DNA of 64,000 nt from Squalus acanthias (lineage: Eukaryota), in NCBI GenBank assembly GCA_030390025.1, contig CM059432.1, positions 40,674,001 through 40,738,000 of the forward strand, in the 5' to 3' direction. The position numbers were made by a program, and so were the translations under genes. Each line of letters starts with the position of its first letter. Position 1 is the first letter of the stretch. This document shows positions 25,577-54,039 of the stretch, piece after piece. Below the pieces are notes generated by a model that was not told the DNA's origin, ran no database searches, and saw only the letters and a program-made list of their open reading frames with translations.

Positions 25577-26036
25577 CTACAAAAAAAATGCAAAGAAAAA
25601 AAAGTAAGACTTAATAATACCATTTTTTACAAAGTAAGTTTATAGAGAATGGACAGGAGTATTAAGCAGAGTCTCTAGGACGCTCCCTTTAGATACCATA
25701 GGGGTAATTTCATGATCCTGTTATAGCCCCATCTCTGACCCACGCTCCCTGCAAGCCTGGCTTCCTGCTGGGTGCCAGGCAACTACACATCATATTATTT
25801 CTTTCAAAAAAGGGATTCAAAAAGGCATTTAGTTTACATTAATTAGGAAGTTACGACGAATGGTGTTATTTATGTTACAGTGCAGACACCCACAAATATA
25901 ATACAGCTCTGCTGAAGAAATACTTCAGGATCAGATAATACAATAACTTTTATTAAATATTCATTCAAAATATGTATCTCTCCCAAAAGTCACCTTTCAC
26001 AAAATATTAAATCACATTAAACCAGGCATCTATCAT

Positions 26037-26131
26037 CTGACGAAGGGTCATCGACCTGAAACGTTAACTCTGTTTCTCTCTCCACAGATGCTGCCTGACC
26101 TGCTGAGTATTTCCAGCGTTTTCTGTTTTTA
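26037..26131 (+). mobile_element. Penelope-like pLTR fragment beginning at a hammerhead core
   Basis: CTGACGA-A-GGGTC-ATC-GACCT-GAAAC-GTT; matches the 3' end of the Penelope fragment 51711-52475; flanked by TATCAT at 26031-26036 and 26132-26137. Confidence 0.85.
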
Positions 26132-27125
26132 TATCATTTTCAGGGACTTGGTACTGAAATCCGATATTTCTTTACCTAGTCATTGCAGTGTGTGCTGCGG
26201 TAGAGGTGACTGATACTGCAATAGAACATAGCAAAGTCTCTCCATATCCAACACGTGATGGGTTTAAAGGGTACTCAAGTTAGTGTTTGGAGTTGGAAGC
26301 CTGGTTTTCTGTAGGCTTGGCAAAACAGCTACATTTGCTGCTTTTCCCAGCTGTGATGGCTAATGTCATTTGCCCCAATTTAGAGACAAAACTTGCTGAA
26401 AATCCATGAAGGTGATAGCTCATTTATTCTTTAATTTAAGAAAAACTTAAAAGATATCAGGATGAGGCGAGTCATTTTTCTGATCAGTATTTGAGGACAA
26501 GGTCACCGTTAGATCCTCATCCTGTTCTGAAGAGAAGCACCTTTAAAACAGCCAGGCTCTATCGATTTTCAAGTCAGCAGCTTCACTTAGATCAGCGCTT
26601 TCAGTGGAGGCTGTTGACAGGAACGTTGGAGGTGAGCACGTACAGCCCTTAGCCCTCACCTCTGTAGCTGGGACTGGTGGTTGGCACACGGATGATATTT
26701 TTGCCAGTCTCTTGTGGGTCAAGGAGCTGGAGTCACGGGCAGGTACATAGGAGAGCTGCAAGCCAGCAGATATTACCAACAGGAGTACTGGAGATGAGTG
26801 CTGCCACAGTGGACAGATGTAGGTGAGTAGGGAGAGGCAGAGCAATCAGCAGTGTACAGTAATTTGGGGATTATCCACCAATTTCTATTATCCACGAGGA
26901 CTGTTACCCCATTACGGCAGATTATCAAGGTTCTGTTGTATATAGGGCCCTCAAGAACCTACATTAGCGGTGTTCTTATTGCTACAAAAGAATTACTCTC
27001 CTGACACCATAAAAACATTTATCTGTAGCTCTTTTAATGACTTCATTTTCAGAATAAAAATGTTAAAATAAATTGCATTCAAAGAAAGTGTCTACAGATG
27101 CAGTATACATTGGCGGAGTACGTAC

Positions 27126-29559: not shown

Positions 29560-31180
29560 AGAAAATAAAAACTACAAATGATGGAAACCTAGAACAAAAG
29601 TAGAAAATGCTAGAAATACACAGATCAGTCAGCAGGTCAGCAGAAAACACTGGTAACACCTTCAATAGAACTGAATTTTAGTAGGGTTGGGGGAAAAAAA
29701 ACTGCAGATGCAGAAGGTTTGAAATGAAAATAAAAAATTGCTAGAAACACGGTAGATCCACTCTTACCAATAAACAGGAAAAAAAAAAGGTCAATGCTTT
29801 GGACACAGACACCCCCTGCCAGAACTTAGTACGGTTGAGGCATCTACACTGACGTGTCAACTTGCCTCTTCTCCCCCGGATGCTGACAGACCCACCTCTA
29901 CATTAACAGCATCCCCTGTTGTAAAGAAAATGAGGGATATAGCTCAGGGCTGAAGTTACTAAAGTTTCATCTTTCTCATGGAGTGCAGAGTGCCGAGGAC
30001 AAAGACACTTTTCTTTAAGCTTGTGCGAGCTTGGTTAAAACTGTACAAGAGGCAAAAGATGGAGAGCTCAAAGTGTGCATGAAAGGGGGAGTTAAGTGAC
30101 AAGCTACGGGGAGGTCAGGGTTAAGCTTACTGCAGAATGGAGATGTTCAGAAAAGATGTCACTGGTTTCCCAATGTAGAGAAGACCATATCACGAGCAGC
30201 GAATACAGTATACCAGATTAGAAGAAATAAACCACCATCTCATGGAAGGATTGTTTAGTGCTCCAGACAATGGCATGGGAGGAGGTGAAGGAACAGGTGT
30301 GGCATCTGCTGCTGTTACACAGGAAAGTGCCAGGGTGGGCCGCTGCAAGTGGAGGTAGTGGAAGGGTGAACAAGGGTATCCTGGAGTAACAGTGCCTCCG
30401 GAAAACAGAGAAGGGAGAGGAACTGAAGATCTACCTCGTGGCAGGATCACGTTGTTGGTGATAGAAATAGCAGATGATGATCTGGTAAATGTGGAGGCTA
30501 GTGGTGGGAAGATGCAGATAAGGGGACCTCGTCATTGCTGCAAAAGAAGGGGGAAGGGGCGAAAACAGAAGTACAAGAAACTGAGCAAACCGGATCAAAA
30601 GTTCTGCTGACCATTATTGAAAGGCAACCTCAGCCAAGGAAAAAGGACATTAAAGAAACTCTGCTATGGAAAATGGAATAATCACAGGAAATGTGACAGA
30701 GACAGCGAAACTGGGAGAATGCAGTAGAGATTTAACAGAAATTGAGGTGGAACGAAACATTATCCAGAGACTTATGGGAGTCGGTAGGCTTGTAATAGAT
30801 CTCTGTGGAAAACCAATCACTCGAGATGAAGAGATAGAAGTCCAGGAAGAGAAGGGATGAGTCAGAGATGGATTATATAAAAATGAGGAATTGAAAGCAT
30901 TGTTAATGCAATTCTGAAGATCAGAGCAAGGCCGGAGGCAGCACCAAAACAATGGTCAATGTAATGGAAGAAGAGGTTAGTAAAGGGTCCTGAATAGGAT
31001 TGGAACAATGTGTTCCTATAAAAAGACAGACAGATATAGCTGGAACCCAAGTGGGTTGCCATAGTGACACCTATTATCTGGAGGAAATGAGTGGAGTTAA
31101 AAAAAGCTGTTCAAGGAGAGAAACTGTTCAGTCAGGCGAAGGGTGGTAGTGGTGGATGGGAACTGTTTGAGCCACTGTTC
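29560..31180 (-). mobile_element. Old degraded Penelope-like retroelement (RT, GIY-YIG remnants, pLTR)
   Basis: MATHLGSSY..LFQSYSGP..LFFHYIDHCFGAAS (YIDD-type PLE RT motif) and SSNLVYCIRCS (GIY-YIG region); decayed aaatgctagaaatacac pLTR blocks at 29570-29760. Confidence 0.78.
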
Positions 31181-34696: not shown

Positions 34697-35694
34697 ATTG
34701 TACCCAAGTCTGATCCTGTCCTTAGAAGTGCACTTTCTAGCATAGGGATCAGGAGTGGGAACACTGGCTGATTTTTCCCCTCCTTCACCCAGGGGTGCTG
34801 AGGCCAGGTGTAGCATTCTGACTGCAGTTGCTCTAATTTTATTCTTTACTGCTTAGTTATGTTGCAGTATCTTAAAATCAACTATTTAAAAAAATTCCAT
34901 GATCCTGACCATCACAGATCTGCAAAGATAGGCAGGACATGCATCTGAGCAGATGAAATCTGAACATTGAATATATTGGCTAAAACTTGTAAATATTTCC
35001 AACCATGCAAGAAAGTCGGACATTTTTCACAAGTCCAACACCAGCAGGCACTTCTTGGTGACTCAACATGATGTACATCAGATGGGTAATGACATGTGCC
35101 TTTGCACAGCAACTGCCTCAGACTGCTTGCAAGCACGTTAGCAAGTTGTAAGATTTTCAAAAATCGAAGCTTCCCAATCGCCAAAGCAAAGTCATCTTAA
35201 AATGAACTAGTATGGGCTCAAGACTAGCCACTATACATCCTGGAAGGGCTTCTGAGCAATAAGCATAAATACTTAGAGAAAGACCATTTGGGTTACTGAA
35301 GAATCTTTTCTGTAGTTTCCATTGTCAGAATAAATCGAACAACTTCAGTTTCTGAGATGCATTATAAAACATACAAAATTAATCAGGAAATGTAATCAAA
35401 AAGATTCAACAACATGCATTACCATTTTTTAAAAATCTTTTATTTGAAAATAGGGCTCTTTGGAGAGGGAACAGAGGTGGGCTCAAAGAGTTTCAAGGCT
35501 GATTTGGAACATTATTCCAAGTCATCAATGGTTTTCAAATCACTGCTTTTGAAAAATTGACTCCATTATATCTTAGACGCAGTTCTGTACTTTACTATAC
35601 ACATATTTTATGTCCACCTCTCACTTCTAAACATGACAGAAAAACTTAAATAAAAATATAGCATTTAGCATGTAACCCATACTAAGTATTGGAG

Positions 35695-35925
35695 TAACAA
35701 CAGAAAACGCTGGAAAAACTCAGCAGGCCAGGCAGCATCCGTGGAGAGAGAAAGAGAGTTAACGTTTCAGGTCGATGACCTTTCGTCAGAACTGTTCTGA
35801 CGAAAGGTCATCGACCTGAAACGTTAACTCTCTTTCTCTCTCCACGGATGCTGCCTGGCCTGCTGAGTTTTTCCAGCGTTTTCTGTTGTTATTTCAGATT
35901 TCCAGCATCCGCAGTATTTTGCTAT
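35695..35925. mobile_element. Penelope-like pLTR fold-back insertion: 98-bp perfect inverted repeat with 1-nt spacer
   Basis: Arms 35695-35792 and 35794-35891; near-TSD CTAAGTATT(G/A)GAGT at 35682-35695 and 35929-35942. Confidence 0.9.
35757..35793 (-). ncRNA. Minimal type-I hammerhead ribozyme motif (family A); mirror copy on + at 35794-35829
   Basis: AGUU-CUGACGA-A-AGGUC-AUC-GACCU-GAAAC-GUU/AACU: stem I AGUU:AACU, stem II AGGUC:GACCU, palindromic AACGUU stem III. Confidence 0.75.
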
Positions 35926-36456
35926 CGCCTAAGTATTAGAGTGGTGGTCTGCCATAGGTAAACACACTCTTGGTGCAGCATAGAATCAAAGTTGATGAGT
36001 AAAGATTTGTAAGAAGGGCTTGGATGATACCCCCATAGTCGAATAGCACGCCAAAATGTGTAGAATAGACATTTGGACAAGGTACTACATGGCCTATTGA
36101 ACTGTACTCCAGCAGAAAGAAAGAGCAAACTTGTACTTATATAGCACCTTTCATAACCTCAGGGCACCCCAAAATGCTTCAGTCAATTAAGTACTTTTGA
36201 AGTGCAGTCACTGTTGTAATAACCACCTCCTTCAAGAAAGGAACAGAGGACTGATGGAGAGAGTGAAAGGGAAAAAAAGTAAGTACAGTGCCCACCGCTT
36301 ATAGCAGGTGCATTGGTGTTAACGCGATTTTTTTGGTAAAACTAAAAAGCTAAGTTACCAACATGTTTTAAAAAAACAGAACATCTCACTTAGCAACTGG
36401 CAATTGTTAGCAGTTGCATCCAGAATCTCATCACTAAGGTAATCGCACTTTAACAT

Positions 36457-36718
36457 GGTGTGAACAGCGGATTGAACCTGCTTGCAGACTCGACTCCATC
36501 TGAAATCAGCACAGTCTATTCAATCAATAAATACAATACAGGGGAATAACAAGGTGTGAACGGTGGATTGAAACTGCTTGAAGACCTGACTGCAACTGGA
36601 ATTAGTGCAGCCTTTTAAATGAATAAATACAATACAGGGGAATAACAAGGTGTGAATGGTGGTTTGATACTGCTTGAAAACCTGATCTTGGCTGAAATCA
36701 GCAGAGCCTTTTAAATTG
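36457..36718 (+). repeat. Tandem repeat, 96-bp period, about 2.7 diverged copies
   Basis: GGTGTGAA recurs at 36457, 36553 and 36649; aataaatacaatacaggggaataacaa is present twice. Confidence 0.85.
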
Positions 36719-37844
36719 GTAAGTACTTGTTGAACTGCCTGAAACAATCAGCACGCCACGTTATAAGTGACGCCTTTGCAATAGGCTCCTATAGTGATTG
36801 AAAATGTTAGCACCATTTGCCCGATATGGACAGTGTAAGTGGTGGGGACAGTTCAGTGCATTTGAAATTACTCTCAGCACTCAACTTCAGAAAGACACAC
36901 CTTAAAAGCACTGTAAAAATACTCAAAGGACTGCTTGTAATGATTAGAATTTTTTTTAATTACATATTCAAAGTAAAGCTCAATATTAGAGCACCTGGCT
37001 TGGAGGACATCGCCACCCCCTCATAAATCAGGAGACAAACTCTTAAAAATTCATGAGATTTGGTATAGAAATCATGAGTTGCTATTTTTTTCCCTCAACC
37101 TGCCCCCTCGCTGGCCTTTGCTCCGGACAGGAAACGCATTCGGCCATCACGCACCAATTACTGACATTAAAAACACATGAACATACGAAATAGGAGCAGG
37201 AGTAGCTGTCGCATCACTCGCAGGCCGGCCTCGCTCTGCTTTTGACTATTACCCTTTCCGGAACACTATGTTGTTATAATCTAGACCCTTCAATCACAGA
37301 AAACAGTCTGGCCTAGAAATACGGCTCGAGTGGTAGCACAAAACGGGCGGTATCGGATCAGCCGCCCATTATATGCAGAGCCTGGTATTCGGTTCCATTG
37401 ATGGCATTGGGGATTCAGTACACCTACTGAGCAGGGGAAGGGGGAAATTAGCTGGCAGAGAAAAATCAGTAAGAAAAATAACAATGCCAAATTCCCATTT
37501 TAAAAATCCTGCCAGTGTCAAGATGCATGAAAATTGTCACCATCCCGACTTTTGCCTATTTTGTAAGCAATGGCATATAGATTGTTCTTTGTATACAGCT
37601 TTGTGTGGTTGTATACAACTCATTGTATTCTGACTCATTACAGAGGGTAATATTCCATGCAATGCAGCTTCAATAATAAGAATCTTGAAGTCGGTATTAT
37701 AGTTATAAGTTATAAATATTGATTCATATTGATTCAACAAGATTTTCAAAGATGCATGTATTGAGAATAAATGAGATATTGCATCTAGCTGTGGATTCAT
37801 GTATCTTTGTCCAGTGGTCAAAGTGGTGCTCTCCAAGCTTTTTT

Positions 37845-37847
<3 letters not shown>

Positions 37848-37876
<29 letters not shown>
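37848..37876 (+). repeat. (AT)n microsatellite
   Basis: Seen directly; abuts the 5' end of a CR1. Confidence 0.95.
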
Positions 37877-37878
<2 letters not shown>

Positions 37879-38829
37879 GACCTGGATATTGGAACACAGT
37901 AGAATTTCTAAATTTGCCGATAACACCAAACTTGGGGGTGTGGCAAACAGTGAGGATGAAACCAATCGACTGCAACAGGACATAGAAAGGCTAGCAGAAT
38001 GGGCAGACAAGTGGCAGATGGAATTTAATACAGAGAAGTGTGAGGTGATGCATTTTGGCAGAAGGAACAGGAAGAGGCAATATACACTTAACGGCACAGT
38101 TTTAAAGAGAGTGCAGGGACAGAGGGACCTGGGAGTTAATGTGCATAGGTCCCTGAAGGTGGCAGGACATATTGAGAGAGTGGTTAACAAAGCATATGGG
38201 ATCTTGGGCTTCATAAATAGAGGTATTGAGTACAAAAGTAGAGAAGTCATGCTGAACCTTTATAAAGCACTGTTTAGGCCACAGCTGGAGTATTGCGTCC
38301 AGTTCTGGTCACCACACTTTAGGAAGGATGTGAAGGCACTTGAGAGGGTGCAGAGGAGATTTACCAGAATGGTTCCGGGGATGGGGGATCTTAGCTACAA
38401 GGACACGTTGGAGAAGCTGGATTTGTTTTCATTGGAGCAAAGGAGGTTGAGGGGTGATTTGATAGAGGTGTACAAGATTATGACGGGTTTGGATAGGCTA
38501 GACGGGGAAAGGCTGTTCCCACTAGTTGATGGTACAAGGACTAGGGGACACAGATTTAAGGTTTTGGGCAAGAGATACAGGGGGGACGTGAGGAAAAACT
38601 TTTTTACGCAGCGAGTGGTGAGGACCTGGAACTCGCTGCCGACGGAAGTGGTGGAAGCGGAGACACTCAATGTTTTCAAGGGGAGACTGGATAGGCACTT
38701 GAGGGAAATAAATTTGCAGGGCTACGGGGATAGAGTGGGGGAATGGGACTGACTGGATTGCTCTAGAGAGAACCGGCACGGACGCGATGGGCCGAATGGC
38801 CACCTTCTGTGCCGTTATGACACTCTATG
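37877..38829 (+). mobile_element. CR1 3' fragment with uninterrupted reading frame (young copy)
   Basis: ORF 37799..38752: ISKFADNTKLGG...[13 protein letters not shown]...WNSLP without stops. Confidence 0.93.
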
Positions 38830-39915
38830 GTCATCAGGATTACACGCTCAATTTAAGCTGTGCAAACCCAGTCTGAAGAAGGAGCAAAGTTTGGTTCTAT
38901 ACTATTGCCAACTTTCCCCAGGATGTCTCACTCCAAACCAATCCCTTTGCAGTCTGAAGGTTACATGGGATCTGAAGACCGAGATGAAAGGGATAGACAG
39001 TAACCCCTGGCGCTGAGAAGTGCTTCACACACAGTCTGAAACTCACAAACGCTCCAGAGCCCAGCGATTAGACTCAGATAAAACATCACACAGCGCAGGA
39101 AGTCTGGCACAGCTCGTTGCTGTTTCGGACTGCAGCTAGGCACAAGAAAAGCGATCGCATCCGCAAGAAAAATGGAGTCGACTTTCGAGGTACACTTCAA
39201 CATTAAATGGGGTCTGCGATCTAACGCTGCGGTCGGTACTGTGCCTGTTTCAGTGCCCATGGTCCGCAACAGCCTTTGATCAGGCAGTGATCCCGGACCC
39301 CATCCCCTTGAGAACCACTGACCCAACCCATGTGTCCCCAGCAGCCAATCACAGGAGGCAGTGACGAAGATTCACACAGCCGGGAAAAAAAATCATAATT
39401 TAATCGGAGGTGAATCGAGAGATCGCGAGTTGGGGAAAACTTTCATTAAAAAATCGTGTCTCTCGCAATTAAATCGCGAGAGTTGGCATTACTGGACATT
39501 CCTGACATGACAGGATTTTTGTTTTCTCTCCTTTCCGTCTCGGTCATGCATGTCTGATCCCCCCACCCCCAAAACTATGCTATAGGAAATACAGTCCACA
39601 GGGTAGTACCATTTTTGGGAGGCCAGGCACAGAGCTTGCCATTCAATCTTCTAAAGATGAACAACCTACACCAGCAAAGCACTGCTTTTAAACAGTACTT
39701 GCAGCCATCTGGTTCAAAGGTCATTAACAGGCCCTGAAACTTGCTTTCATTTATATGTGAAGAATAGCCACTTATGCAAGGTACCAGAGAACCACAACTG
39801 CTTGTTAGTATGAGTCACCACCTTCAGAAAAGGTGGTGTGGGGAGGGAAAAAATATCTTTAGCATTATCTTTAACAGCAAATTAGGCAAATCTCAAGATA
39901 TACTAACAATCTCAC

Positions 39916-40037
39916 CTGTCTGCTAGAAAACCAGAATTTTCTTTCATGAAATGTAGAAAGGTACACAGCATACAACATTCCACTTGCAATTGCTGCCCAG
40001 CTGCCAAAGAAAACCTTTACCCACTGATGAAAGGCAG
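39916..40037 (-). CDS. DPY19L4: DPY19L4 exon: (S)[40 protein letters not shown]
   Basis: tttgcag|CT...CAG|gtgag; 122 nt; first TM segment plus HERKFWFS motif. Confidence 0.95.
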
Positions 40038-40365
40038 CTGCAAAACATTAAAAAAAACATATTCAACTCCATCACAAATATGAAATACAGAAACTTCCAC
40101 ACACAATTACAAGTTTTTAATTACAGACTGGCAAACACAATAATGTGTGTAATTTATACAAACATATCCATTCCGAATTGTTAAAAACAACAGCATCAAT
40201 GTGGGTAACTTTTACAATTAATTGTGCATTTTTTTCCTCTAAAGGACAAGTTCAAAACAGGTGCAATTTAGCTCAGTGTGGCATATTATTCATGAGTCTA
40301 CCTTAAGTAATAACTCCATGTTATATAAAAGTGTAATCCAATCCTGTTTGACTGTTTATTTATAA

Positions 40366-40581
40366 CCATGATGTGGAGAAGCCGGTGTTGGACTGGGGTG
40401 GACAAATGTGAGAAGTCGCACAACACCAGGTTATAGTCCAACAGGTTTATTTGAAATCACAAGCTTTCGGAGCGCTGCTCCTTCGTCAGGTGAAGTCGAC
40501 TGACGAAGGAGCAGCGCTCCGAAAGCTTGTGATTTCAAATAAACCTGTTGGACTATAACCTGGTGTTGTGCGACTTCTCAC
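40366..40581. mobile_element. Fold-back insertion of a second, probably Penelope-like family: 82-bp perfect inverted repeat with 10-nt spacer
   Basis: Arms 40408-40489 and 40500-40581; 12-bp direct repeat GTTTATTTATAA at 40354-40365 and 40582-40593; family assignment is by analogy to family A and from recall. Confidence 0.82.
40457..40493 (-). ncRNA. Minimal type-I hammerhead ribozyme motif (family B); mirror core on + at 40500-40532
   Basis: UCAC-CUGACGA-A-GGAGC-AGC-GCUCC-GAAAG-CUU/GUGA: stem I UCAC:GUGA, stem II GGAGC:GCUCC, palindromic AAGCUU stem III. Confidence 0.75.
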
Positions 40582-41796
40582 GTTTATTTATAAAACCATG
40601 GTCTGTCTTTGTGCAATTCTGCCCTGCCAATGACCTGGGCTGAGGGGGTATAGTTTACTGCAATTGGAAATATATTAATAGTTATTTTAATAGTCATTAG
40701 ATAAGGTTCTAGTTAAATCACAACCCATAGTTTGGATAGGCCCCGATAAACAGTTAAAGTCTTCTTGATTACAACAGTTCTTCAAACATGCAAGTATTTG
40801 TTTTTTTTTAAAAAAAATATTGGACTCCCACAATTATTCAAAACTGCAGAAATGCAATTGATTTCCAGTGACTGGATTCAGTACCAGGAGGGGATGCCAC
40901 CTTGTCAAATTCAAGCTAGGAGAAACCAAAGTAGATGTGCAGCCAGGAGAGGTTCAGTCATTGAACAGAGTTGGTTCAGAAGAGAAGAGGTACATGCCAT
41001 TGTGAAACAGATTAATGAACCATAGCCACAAATTCACAAAATGACTAAATATCGCTTTTATTACAGGAGATTTTTACAAGCATTTTTTGGGGTTTGAATT
41101 CTGTGACTGTACACTTTTCTGTGAAAACTGTAAAAATAGTAGCCCTGATTTGAACAGCAGAGGGGTTTAGGAAGAATAGCGCATTAAGTCAGAGGATGCC
41201 AGTCATGTCTTTGGCCAGGGCTGCCTCGAATGCTATGAGCAGGGTAAGCTGGACTGAAGGGATTTAACTAGGGTGTTTGGTAGAGAAAAGCATGGAGCTG
41301 GAAGGTGACAACACATTTAAGTCCATTTATTATGGCAAAATAATGGAAACTAATGTTGTGTGGAATGGCATCATTTGAGAGTTTCTGGAAACCACGAGCA
41401 TCCAGGACAAACATAGGTGTAAGGAGTGATTCCCATTCAAGGCTACTGAGCTTGAGAAACAGTGGAGACAATCCAGACTGTACAAGAAAAGGAAAGCTTC
41501 CTATAATGCATATTTCATGTCACTGGCAGCTAAAGAGGAATAGTGAAACAGAGGAAGGGAAGTGGGTGACCATCAGCTGGGGGGGAGGAGGGAAAGAGCA
41601 ACTGAGGTAGAGGCAGTGTGGGAAACTCCTGAGGTTCTGAAGTTGTCTGATGGAGAAGAGGACTGGCTGTGACAAGTCTTTTCTTAAACAAAGTAAGTTG
41701 GTTTATGTAGATGACAAACCAATGGAATTTTCAATTTCATTCTTCCCAAGTATTTTCTCAATCCATGCAATAATGTCTGCATTGCTGACAGTAGTA

Positions 41797-41933
41797 CAAA
41801 AGCGAAATACTGTGGATGCTGGAAATCTGAAATAAAAACAGAAAATGCTGGGAATACTCAGCAGGTTAGGCAGCATCTGTGGACAGAGAAACAGCGTTAA
41901 CGTTTCAGGTATTCCCTGCATTTTCTGTTTTTG
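41797..41933 (-). mobile_element. Penelope-like pLTR fragment (family A) with short fold-back
   Basis: aaatactgtggatgctggaaatctgaaataaaaacagaaaatgctgggaatac...gttaacgtttcaggt then attccctgcattttctgttttt (inverted). Confidence 0.8.
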
Positions 41934-49959: not shown

Positions 49960-50345
49960 ACCCTCCTCCTCGGCTATTCTGCTGTAACCATTTACACCTC
50001 CTCTGGACCCATCTTTTGTTTCTCTACTTGTCTCATTATTACCTAATTTTGCCTTGCACCAGCATCACTTTTGTCACTTAATCACTCCTGCCCCTCTAGC
50101 CTATCACTTTTGTTCCTTGTCCCTTTACCCTGGCTCTGTACTTGCTTAAAAACTATTGATCTCCAGCAAATAAAGCAAAAGCTAAATACTCAAAATGCTG
50201 AAAACACACAGCAGGTCAGGCAGCATCTGTGGAAAGAGAAACAGAGTTAACGTTGCAGGTCGATGACCTTTTAGCCTGAAAGGTTCTTTCTCCACAGATG
50301 CTGGCTGACCTGCTGAATGTCTCTAGCATTTTGTGTTTTTATTTC
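49960..50345. mobile_element. Degraded Penelope-like 3' UTR plus decayed fold-back pLTR (family A)
   Basis: 49985-50155 resembles 52135-52320; 50190-50340 has cagcaggtcaggcagcatctgtggaaagag...tctccacagatgctggctgacctgctg inverted arms. Confidence 0.72.
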
Positions 50346-50831: not shown

Positions 50832-51477
50832 ATAATGTCTTCGGAATTATATTCCCGCTCTCAAACAACTGTTGTTATCTTGCTGCTTTAAAACGTATAA
50901 TTTTTAATAGTCTTTGAGTAGACATGGTACTCATTTTATCCACTATGAAAACGTACACACCCTAAAACAAGGAGACCTCTCTGCAATTCATCGAATAAGG
51001 TCAGTGGATCATTGAAGTCTACCTGAACAGGCAGATGGGGTGAGCCTTGGTTTAACATCTGATCCGAGAAACGCATCTCCAATAGTGCAATACTCCAGAA
51101 AATTGTCACTAGTTTATGTGCTCAAGTCCTAGAGAGAGAACATACAACTTCTGACTCCGAGATAAGAGTGCGACCAACTGATGACCGTGTTACTCCGCTA
51201 GCAAAATGGCAGGTCCGTGTGGACACATGATCTATGAGAGCAGGCATCTGCTGGATTTTCCCCCCTCACAGTAATGACAGCCATAATTTTGCTTTGCCTC
51301 TTCCCAACCTTGCTTTTACCTCAACTTCAAGCAGCAGTTCTTGGGCTACCCGTGTTGCTTTCCTTGTCCTCTTGCCACATTATCCCTACTTGGCCTCCCA
51401 CTTGATCACGACCGCTCTTCTTTTCAGGTGGCCTCTGCTTGATTCGTCCCTCCGTGGCAGCCGAGTCCACTCCTCCA

Positions 51478-51710
51478 GCACCGCAACACCCGCTCCCCTT
51501 CCCACGGCACCGCAACACCCGCTTCCCCTTCCCACAGCACCGCAACACCCGCTCCCCTTCCCACGGCACCGCAACACCCGCTCCCCTTCCCACAGCACCG
51601 CAACACCCGCTCCCCTTCCCACAGCACCGCAACACCCGCTCCCCTTCCCACAGCACCGCAACACCCGCTCCCCTTCCCACGGCACCGCAACACTCGCTCC
51701 CCTTCCCACA
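51478..51710 (+). repeat. Minisatellite, 8 x 29 bp (GCACCGCAACACCCGCTCCCCTTCCCACR)
   Basis: Near-identical units seen directly; one unit has a 1-nt insertion. Confidence 0.95.
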
Positions 51711-52475
51711 GCACCTTCTCATGCAACACCTACCCTTTTACCTCCTCCCTTCGCACCATTCAGGGCCCCAAACATTCCTTGCAGGTAAAACAGCGATCGA
51801 GTTACTTGTACTTCTTTCAATTTAGTATACTGTATTTAGGTAGACCAAATGCAGATTGGTTGATCGCTTTGTGGAACACCTCCGTTCAGTCCACAAGCGT
51901 GACCCTGAGCTTCCGATCGCCTGTCATTTTAATTCTTCCGCCCCACTCCCACTCTGACCTCGGCCTACTACACTGTTCCAATGAAGCTACACGCAAGCTC
52001 GAGGAGCAACGCCTCATCTTTCGATTTAGACACTTTACAGCCTTCCGGACTCAACATCGAGTTCAACAATTTCAGATCATAACCACTGCCCCCATTTTTT
52101 TCCAGACAGCAGCTGTAGGTAATCATTCTGCTACTCCCATTTACACCTCCTCGCGACCCTTCTTTTACTTCTTTACTTGTCCCATTACCATCCTCCTTTG
52201 CCTTTTACCATCATCCCTTTTGTCATTTAATCTCTCCTGCCTTCCACCCAATTATGGACCTTCCCTTTTGTTCTTTCCTCCCCTCCCCCTTTCCCTGCCT
52301 CTGTACTTACTTAAAACCTGTTACATCTCTAACTTTTTCCAGTTCTGATGAAAGGTCATCGACCTGATCTGGTCATCTGTTTCTCTCTCCACAGATGCTG
52401 CCTGACCTGCTGAGTATTTCCAGCGTTTTCTGTTTTTATTTTAGATTTCCAGCATCCGCAGTATTTTGCTTTTGT
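51711..52475 (+). mobile_element. Penelope-like element 3' part: GIY-YIG endonuclease remnant, 3' UTR and pLTR
   Basis: Frameshifted QVKQR..TSFNLVYCI..RLVDRFVEHLRSVHKRDPELPIACHFN..LGLLHCSNEATRKLEEQRLIFR..LQPSGLNIEFNNF; AGTT-CTGATGA-AAGGTCATCGACCT at 52341-52365 (GAAAC lost). Confidence 0.88.
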
Positions 52476-53770: not shown

Positions 53771-53902
53771 CTTACATTGGGAGTTGTGACCAAGGGAGAG
53801 ATTTATCTGTGGTTTGTATGGGGCTAGTAAGAAATTAAATACAGATATATTTACTTATTAAACTGCAATGCACAAGAGAAACACTTATTTTATGTAACTA
53901 TA

Positions 53903-53994
53903 ATAAAAATACAAAATGCTGGAAATACTCAGCAGGTCAGGCAGCATCTGTGGAGAGAAACAGAGTTAATGTTTCAGGTTGATGACCTTTCGTC
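53903..53994 (-). mobile_element. Penelope-like pLTR fragment (family A) truncated at the hammerhead core
   Basis: Reverse complement TGACGAAAGGTCATCAACCTGAAACATTAACTCTG... Confidence 0.82.
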
Positions 53995-54039
53995 ATCAAT
54001 GTAAGTACATTGTTTACGTACACAAATCTTGGCATGTGG

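Follow-up and report, generated by a model that had tools for sequence, protein, structure and literature searches.

The fold-back elements A (35695-35928) and B (40368-40582) lie in a 64,000-nucleotide stretch of Squalus acanthias DNA (GenBank assembly GCA_030390025.1, contig CM059432.1, positions 40,674,001 to 40,738,000 of the forward strand; the window), and each carries a minimal hammerhead ribozyme motif. Both are stubs of Penelope-like element (PLE) retrotransposons, with target-site duplications (TSDs) on either side. We consider it probable, at roughly 70%, that the stubs derive from uncleaved, capped RNA of related Neptune-type PLEs, the front end of which was copied by the element protein onto both sides of a DNA cut. 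The present analysis contributes the PLE parentage, the TSDs and one-sided tail of the stubs, their copy numbers, the clustering of 5' ends 3-7 nt ahead of the core and an excess of G ahead of the start in family A.

Two PLE stubs and their full-length parents

Element A consists of perfect 98-bp arms centred on base 35793, with an extension on the right arm only, while element B has perfect 82-bp arms (40408-40489 and 40500-40581) around a 10-nt centre, with an extension on the left arm only. The features of the two elements, including the parts of the pseudo-long terminal repeat (pLTR) and open reading frame (ORF) that they retain, are as follows.

35682..35695: left TSD of element A, 14 nt, read from the sequence; its final base is common to the arm
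35695..35793, minus strand: inverted arm of element A, without tail; 5' end 4-5 nt ahead of core C3
35757..35793, minus strand: complete family A hammerhead; 4-bp stem I, 5-bp stem II closed by A-U, GUU triplet; predicted cut between 35761 and 35760 (standard hammerhead numbering)
35794..35829, plus strand: plus-arm copy of the family A hammerhead; 3-bp stem I; predicted cut between 35825 and 35826
35794..35928, plus strand: direct arm of element A, the end of a putative Neptune-type PLE pLTR with the first ORF codons
35892..35928, plus strand: one-sided tail of A, 37 nt, an unpaired extension; copies have this 3' end in common
35929..35942: right TSD of element A, matching the left copy at 13 of 14 positions
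40355..40370: left TSD of element B, 16 nt; its last 3 nt are common to the element end
40368..40403, minus strand: tail of B, on one side only and about 36 nt long; in the full-length copy it stops at the ORF start codon
40368..40496, minus strand: long arm of element B with tail, starting 7 nt ahead of core C3
40457..40493, minus strand: complete family B hammerhead; 4-bp stem I, 5-bp stem II closed by G-C, CUU triplet; predicted cut between 40461 and 40460
40500..40582, plus strand: short arm of element B, without tail; core intact, 5' strand of stem I missing
40583..40600: right TSD of element B, with two extra A relative to the left copy

An inverted, 5'-truncated copy with a one-sided tail of 30-40 bp and a TSD is the standard PLE insertion (PMC8557442, PMC3846280), and both window elements have this form; the fold-back is this already known structure. 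Further likenesses to the canonical insertion of endonuclease-containing (EN+) PLEs are the head-to-head copy, the palindromic junction and an initiator-like TCACT in the pLTR. The stubs differ from it in that both arms are only about 100-135 nt long, with ends clustered at the 5' edge of the hammerhead.

Full-length parents were located by walking upstream from genomic copies in the 3.7-Gb genome. Each arm is 97-100% identical to its 40 best copies (99-100% for the direct arm of element A), and these copies have a common 3' end and a variable 5' end. For family A, the same stretch flanks ORFs in the parents L061, L330 and L331, in each of which about 3.2 kb separates two direct pLTRs; L330 and L331, which belong to a GUC subfamily, have open ORFs of 955-971 aa. 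In the family B parent, L329, the pLTRs are 3,136 nt apart, and the long-arm stretch of element B precedes an open ORF of 848 aa that begins 125 nt past core C3, at the tail end. A partial tandem of pLTRs flanking an ORF, as in EN+ PLEs, was thus found in L061, L329, L330 and L331, at a spacing of 3,136-3,202 nt. A single ORF with reverse transcriptase (RT) and C-terminal GIY-YIG endonuclease regions is present in the parents and absent from the stubs. The family A protein matches Pfam RVT_1 and GIY-YIG, both below cutoff; the family B protein matches RVT_1 above cutoff and GIY-YIG below it (L068), with the GIY-YIG motif also found by regular expression. Close homologues of the B protein are annotated with both families, and its closest named relatives are shark proteins of 80-94% identity. 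The expectation that these are minimal type-I hammerheads of PLE pLTRs is thereby borne out in both families.

Both proteins carry a CX4CXXC linker and the endonuclease C/H motifs. A zinc-finger-like CX2-5CXXC linker between RT and endonuclease, together with a CCHH motif in the endonuclease, marks Neptune and is common to Nematis (PMC8557442); on these motifs, which fit Neptune and Nematis alike, A and B appear to be Neptune-type families. Over 827 aa the A and B proteins have 31% identity (34% in another comparison), and the DNA of the two families gives no significant blastn match outside the core. The families are therefore related, not unrelated as a reading of the sequence alone had proposed, and their ribozymes are most simply taken as homologous. 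One locus, G000:C1:5743077-5743158, has an A-type arm preceded by a few bases like an inverted B-type arm, possibly an A/B chimeric junction, and locus L093 carries two different B-type pLTR ends in tandem (L093:3810-3860).

Copy ends and the RNA template

Copies were picked with an anchor lying downstream of the cut, core C3 being set at 0 and the cut at +29, and 5' ends were tallied by eye in the first 100 matches of each family on one contig. For family A (first 100 of 57,147 matches), 60 copies extend past -17 and 40 end in view: 13 at -5 to -1, 12 at 0 to +11, 8 at -17 to -6 and 7 past +11, one of these at +29. For family B (first 100 of 89,355 matches), about 31 end in view, with 6 at -7, 2 at +31 and none at the cut. 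Over bins chosen post hoc, the clustering has Poisson p values of about 3e-5 (A) and 1e-5 (B). A pile-up at the cleavage site, which was considered as in vivo proof of cutting, was not seen (1 of 40 in A, 0 of about 31 in B). Copies instead extend across the cut and end immediately ahead of the ribozyme, a pattern that favours templates with a cap and without cleavage. The role of the hammerhead in EN+ PLEs is described as still open (PMC8557442), and a genome-scale map of ends offers a cheap in vivo clue to it.

The modal start in both families is an A following a pyrimidine, which we take to resemble an initiator. The initiator-like TCACT of a rotifer pLTR (PMC3846280) recurs as an identical 5 nt in family B. 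In the window, the arms of element A start at -4/-5 and -3, and the long arm of element B starts at -7, preceded by an extra G that is absent from the family B sequence. The base before the start in family A is G in 39 of 73 copies, A in 22 and T in 12, after 27 untruncated point variants were dropped. At a control start (+1) in the same family, G precedes 10 of 42 events, counted with untruncated rows dropped and four identical rows collapsed to one (Fisher p=0.003). Among A solos alone, that is, copies without an inverted arm, G precedes 28 of 57 (p=0.003 against base composition). In family B the base is G in 84 and A in 16. In full-length L1 insertions an extra 5' G is known to be left by the cap (PMC11702581), and the common 5' start here, often with an extra G, likely marks the start of a capped RNA rather than the ribozyme cut. 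In a check of TSDs at 30 A and 30 B loci, several A solos starting at -4 had a TSD directly adjacent and a second TSD at about +100 or +134, matching two priming sites.

The same PLE stubs could also acquire clustered ends from structure, by RT stalling or by snap-back of the cDNA at stem I to self-prime the second arm, with the G excess arising from microhomology to G-rich partner strands. The commonest B junction indeed forms a perfect hairpin, its 2-nt centre lying at the stem I boundary (a gap of 10 is commonest), palindromic junctions have been interpreted as self-priming (PMC3846280), and in 16 B fold-backs the arms within one element differ by 1.3 nt, against 2.5 nt between loci. Two cDNAs copied from one source RNA, or from one subfamily, would however show such a similarity of arms as well. 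The A solos start at the same place with the G excess given above although they have no inverted arm to be self-primed, and the tail occurs on one arm only, as two priming events predict. We regard the structural explanation as unlikely, though it is the strongest of the alternatives.

Several observations weigh against a capped, uncleaved template. The A ends are scattered from -5 to +11 and do not fall at one base, and the tallies were made by eye on one contig, where some tandem or paired rows are non-independent. B copies with non-element flanks give 14 G and 8 A (p=0.09), with no control position, and a G-rich opposite arm can template many of the B G's. In the four G cases with a credible TSD, the G lies inside the TSD in three and is untemplated in one. 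Covariation of the hammerhead helices within each family, judged from tallied pair counts, is thin. The transcript data comprised Logan contigs only (17 runs listed, their RNA status mostly guessed, four examined), in which no RNA start, cap or cleavage was seen. Finally, Penelope of D. virilis starts well upstream of its hammerhead, with an intron between (PMC2377424, PMC4209133). Logan depth is high over the stubs and drops at the inferred start; it follows stub copy number and subfamily divergence and was not counted as evidence.

The family A sequence directly before stem I resembles a polypyrimidine tract and 3' splice acceptor (L062:3590-3630, L061), and the intron of D. virilis Penelope ends at helix I (PMC4209133). 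An origin of the A starts from spliced RNA is disfavoured, as solos keep the AG and several have directly adjacent TSDs. The examined Logan contigs contain no joint at the A acceptor, although contigs cannot exclude one. We found no earlier report of a start or cap signature, or of shark Neptune elements, in the literature searched, whose coverage was without most subscription journals.

The closest biochemical parallel to synthesis on a capped, uncleaved template is PAc, a Poseidon element of Anolis carolinensis (PMC11167929). Its protein cuts and extends both strands and mostly uses uncleaved RNA as template, two internal RT start sites define the tail, and the hammerhead overlaps or just precedes the ORF start, as in the elements here. 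These differ from PAc in their CX2-5CXXC linker of Neptune/Nematis type, and neither a cap signature nor a transcription start at stem I is described in the available portion of that report. By this model, transcription would start at -4 in family A and -7 in family B, with the hammerhead as the opening 40 nt of the mRNA. From the tail sites of the 5' pLTR, priming would yield cDNAs of 100-135 nt running off at the cap, and two such cDNAs, one per priming site and from the two sides of the break, would join head to head by their 3' ends to give the fold-back. If so, the genome records the start site, both priming sites and a double-ended route of insertion.

The hammerhead: conservation, abundance and predicted activity

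Both motifs occur as the sequence-only reading wrote them, in full on the minus-strand arm of each element, and fit the published minimal type-I PLE hammerhead. A descriptor comprising the core, the extra nucleotide after it, a stem II of at least 4 bp, a Watson-Crick pair at 15.2-16.2, U16.1, H17 and a stem I of at least 3 bp finds three matches in the window and none in any of 50 shuffled versions. Taken alone, the core pattern occurs in the window at a frequency that does not exceed chance (9 against a mean of 6.3), and an Rfam covariance-model scan of the window returned no hammerhead family match at E up to 10. The miRNA-like Rfam matches in the window were dismissed, since they merely reflect the palindrome.

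Conservation was tallied in 267 motif copies (110 A, 157 B) from the examined loci, a sample partly selected on motif positions. Core positions C3-A9 and G12-A15.1, with U16.1 and H17, are kept in A and B. The extra A between positions 9 and 10.1 is present in 266 of the 267 copies and the Watson-Crick pair 15.2-16.2 in 102 of the A and 155 of the B copies, both within that same partial selection. The G10.1-C11.1 pair is found in 152 of 157 B copies; family A instead has A-U (74 of 110) or G.U (33 of 110). Between the families the helices covary, as had been proposed: both sides change at 8 of 10 variable pairs, namely all four stem I pairs, three of five stem II pairs and the 15.2-16.2 pair. 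They are nevertheless not fully different, since stem II pairs 2 and 5 are identical. Among B copies, C-G stands at stem I pair 3 in 130 and U-A in 16, stem II pair 5 is U-A in two, and variation also occurs at N7 and in loop II; no pair in A changes on both sides, the one-sided A-U/G.U change at 10.1-11.1 being the only one. The palindromic stem III exists as described, but its functional part is 4 nt (15.1-16.1), and the 6-nt version takes in core A14 and N17. On the plus arm of B, stem I is lost (0 bp).

Some subfamilies depart from these patterns. One B subfamily, 6 of 100 listed matches, carries the core change U4C, and the pair that closes its stem II is compensated (L255; G000:C1:906666, 1072557, 1072672, 2004958, 3393234 and 3393562). 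Another, with an 8-nt, near-palindromic loop II, is very common among the listed B matches (L093:3810-3860; L229, L230). In the GUC subfamily of A (L330:287-330, L331), N7 and N17 change together, creating an in-frame AUG inside the core. In one B subfamily (L245, L251, L252), stem I looks like the pairing of a 5' splice site with the U1 snRNA 5' end, perhaps by chance.

Copies were counted genome-wide as exact patterns requiring an intact core, so that decayed copies are missed. The pattern matches number about 138,000 for A and B together, and at least two ribozyme-bearing families have indeed become abundant: 54,362 matches for A-GUU (control 9), 4,041 for A-GUC/GUA (control 15; GUC in 96 of 100 listed) and 80,121 for B (control 17; CUU in 88 and CUC in 12 of 100 listed). 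U17 is unusual yet allowed: the triplet normally found in nature is GUC (PMC1636495), and GUU is among the cleavable NUH sites (PMC3138052). The proposed NUU triplet holds insofar as U17 dominates, but it is fixed in neither family, given the GUC and CUC subfamilies. In a fold computation, U17 can pair with A14 across a dimer, which is 2.4-2.6 kcal/mol more stable and uses core bases. Young parents with open ORFs in GUU and GUC, or CUU and CUC, versions form a natural series in which cleavage rate could be related to transposition. Some A-type stubs have been amplified within tandem or segmental repeats (L005-L009; G000:C1:6988657-7130834).

Metazoan PLE hammerheads (PMC4209133) have in common with those here the pLTR location, a helix I of 4-5 bp, the extra nucleotide between 9 and 10.1, the palindromic 15.2-16.2 region, the lack of loop 3, several families per genome and nearby opposite-strand pairs. 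Family A differs in having A-U or G.U for the conserved G10.1-C11.1, and helix II here has 5 bp; U17 is dominant here. The counts reported there, about 4,000 in coelacanth and 9,000 in Xenopus, compare with about 138,000 here by different methods. This genome is among the larger reported counts of hammerhead-like motifs that we encountered; axolotl has 120,000 retrozyme copies (PMC7229834). The architecture itself, with the extra nucleotide, the palindromic 15.2-16.2, the dimer model and the inverted copy with tail, is already published (PMC4209133, PMC8557442, PMC3846280). Ribozyme and fold-back being known PLE features, the finding as first posed is mostly ordinary.

The window copies themselves are unlikely to act as ribozymes. 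In folding predictions, read-through RNA of the fold-backs forms a hairpin of -167 to -205 kcal/mol in which stem II has a probability of 1e-16 or lower; the stubs are predicted to be silent because the read-through transcript folds into this very stable hairpin. With one core on each strand, and stem II suppressed by the hairpin, a fold-back could not supply the dimer. These predictions bear on the idea that the fold-backs are functional, self-propagating mini-elements resembling retrozymes, with their two hammerheads acting as a dimer. Head-to-head core pairs within 30 nt are numerous (6,917, control 70; commonest gap 10), 28 pairs within 3 kb account by eye for 56 of the first 100 B matches, and retrozymes have been proposed to derive from PLE pLTRs (bioRxiv 10.64898/2026.07.22.740005). 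Non-LTR retrozymes are, moreover, non-coding type-I hammerhead repeats linked to PLEs (PMC7229834, bioRxiv 10.64898/2026.07.22.740005). They are, however, direct tandem repeats with a hammerhead in each unit, whereas the window elements are inverted, TSD-flanked single insertions with junctions that vary from locus to locus. A single transcript of a fold-back would contain one core in sense orientation together with its antisense, and stem I is absent from the plus arm of B. Of all the explanations weighed, we give this one the least credence.

For the hammerhead in isolation, folding gave weak monomer z-scores. Family A has a competing helix that sequesters the core (-9.1 against -6.0 kcal/mol for the hammerhead-like fold), equally stable in the GUC subfamily. 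Co-folding lent no thermodynamic support to an active dimer, the unconstrained co-folds reaching -22.9 and -30.5 kcal/mol against -9.9 and -20.7 kcal/mol for the hammerhead dimer. Published PLE hammerheads cleave poorly, even as dimers (PMC4209133), and that of PAc cleaves only with its protein (PMC11167929).

An alternative reading is that the motif no longer cleaves and persists for a function as promoter, splice acceptor or protein-binding element, with U17, A10.1-U11.1 and the competing helix as vestigial marks. In A the core-sequestering helix is favoured over the hammerhead-like fold by 3 kcal/mol, A is without the conserved G10.1-C11.1, U4C, present in the B subfamily, lowers hammerhead activity in vitro (PMC3088659), and almost no copies start at the cut site. 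Against this, core and pairing are kept across lineages of 31% protein identity, the variation in B falls at N7 and loop II, which are free in hammerheads, and the PAc hammerhead cleaves with its protein and shows C3-G8 rescue (PMC11167929). We think loss of cleavage quite improbable.

With synthesis on capped, uncleaved RNA as the preferred reading, the ribozyme in the parent mRNA would be slow, protein-assisted and possibly dimeric. A cut at +29 would strip the cap and a leader of 33-36 nt. The first AUG lies at +51 in A-GUU and at +125 in B, with an additional AUG at +3 in the GUC subfamily; cleavage at +29 would thus decap the mRNA ahead of the first AUG and could act as a brake on expression, which is speculation. 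A tentative fuller picture, to which we give somewhat less than even odds, is that the capped mRNA opens with the hammerhead, stem I lying at the cap or 3 nt past it, that the stubs and fold-backs of 100-135 nt, tens of thousands in number, are fossil run-off cDNAs that copied the cap, and that cleavage is a self-decapping brake on translation, slowed by U17 and competing helices, rather than a step in transposition.

Other sequences in the window

The window also holds five older A-type PLE fragments (26036-26136, 41801-41910, 50192-50345, 52340-52470 and 53902-53995), of which that at 50192-50345 is a further A-type fold-back and the 52340 copy carries a damaged ribozyme. Decayed PLE ORF pieces, found by tblastn with the A protein at 36-57% identity, lie at 29983-31131 and 51698-52079, the latter directly upstream of the 52340 pLTR copy. 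A minisatellite of about 11 units of 29 nt occupies 51436-51755. Between the two fold-backs, positions 37878-38830 contain the 3' part of a LINE-like element, which we take to be of CR1 type, with related copies across the window in both orientations.

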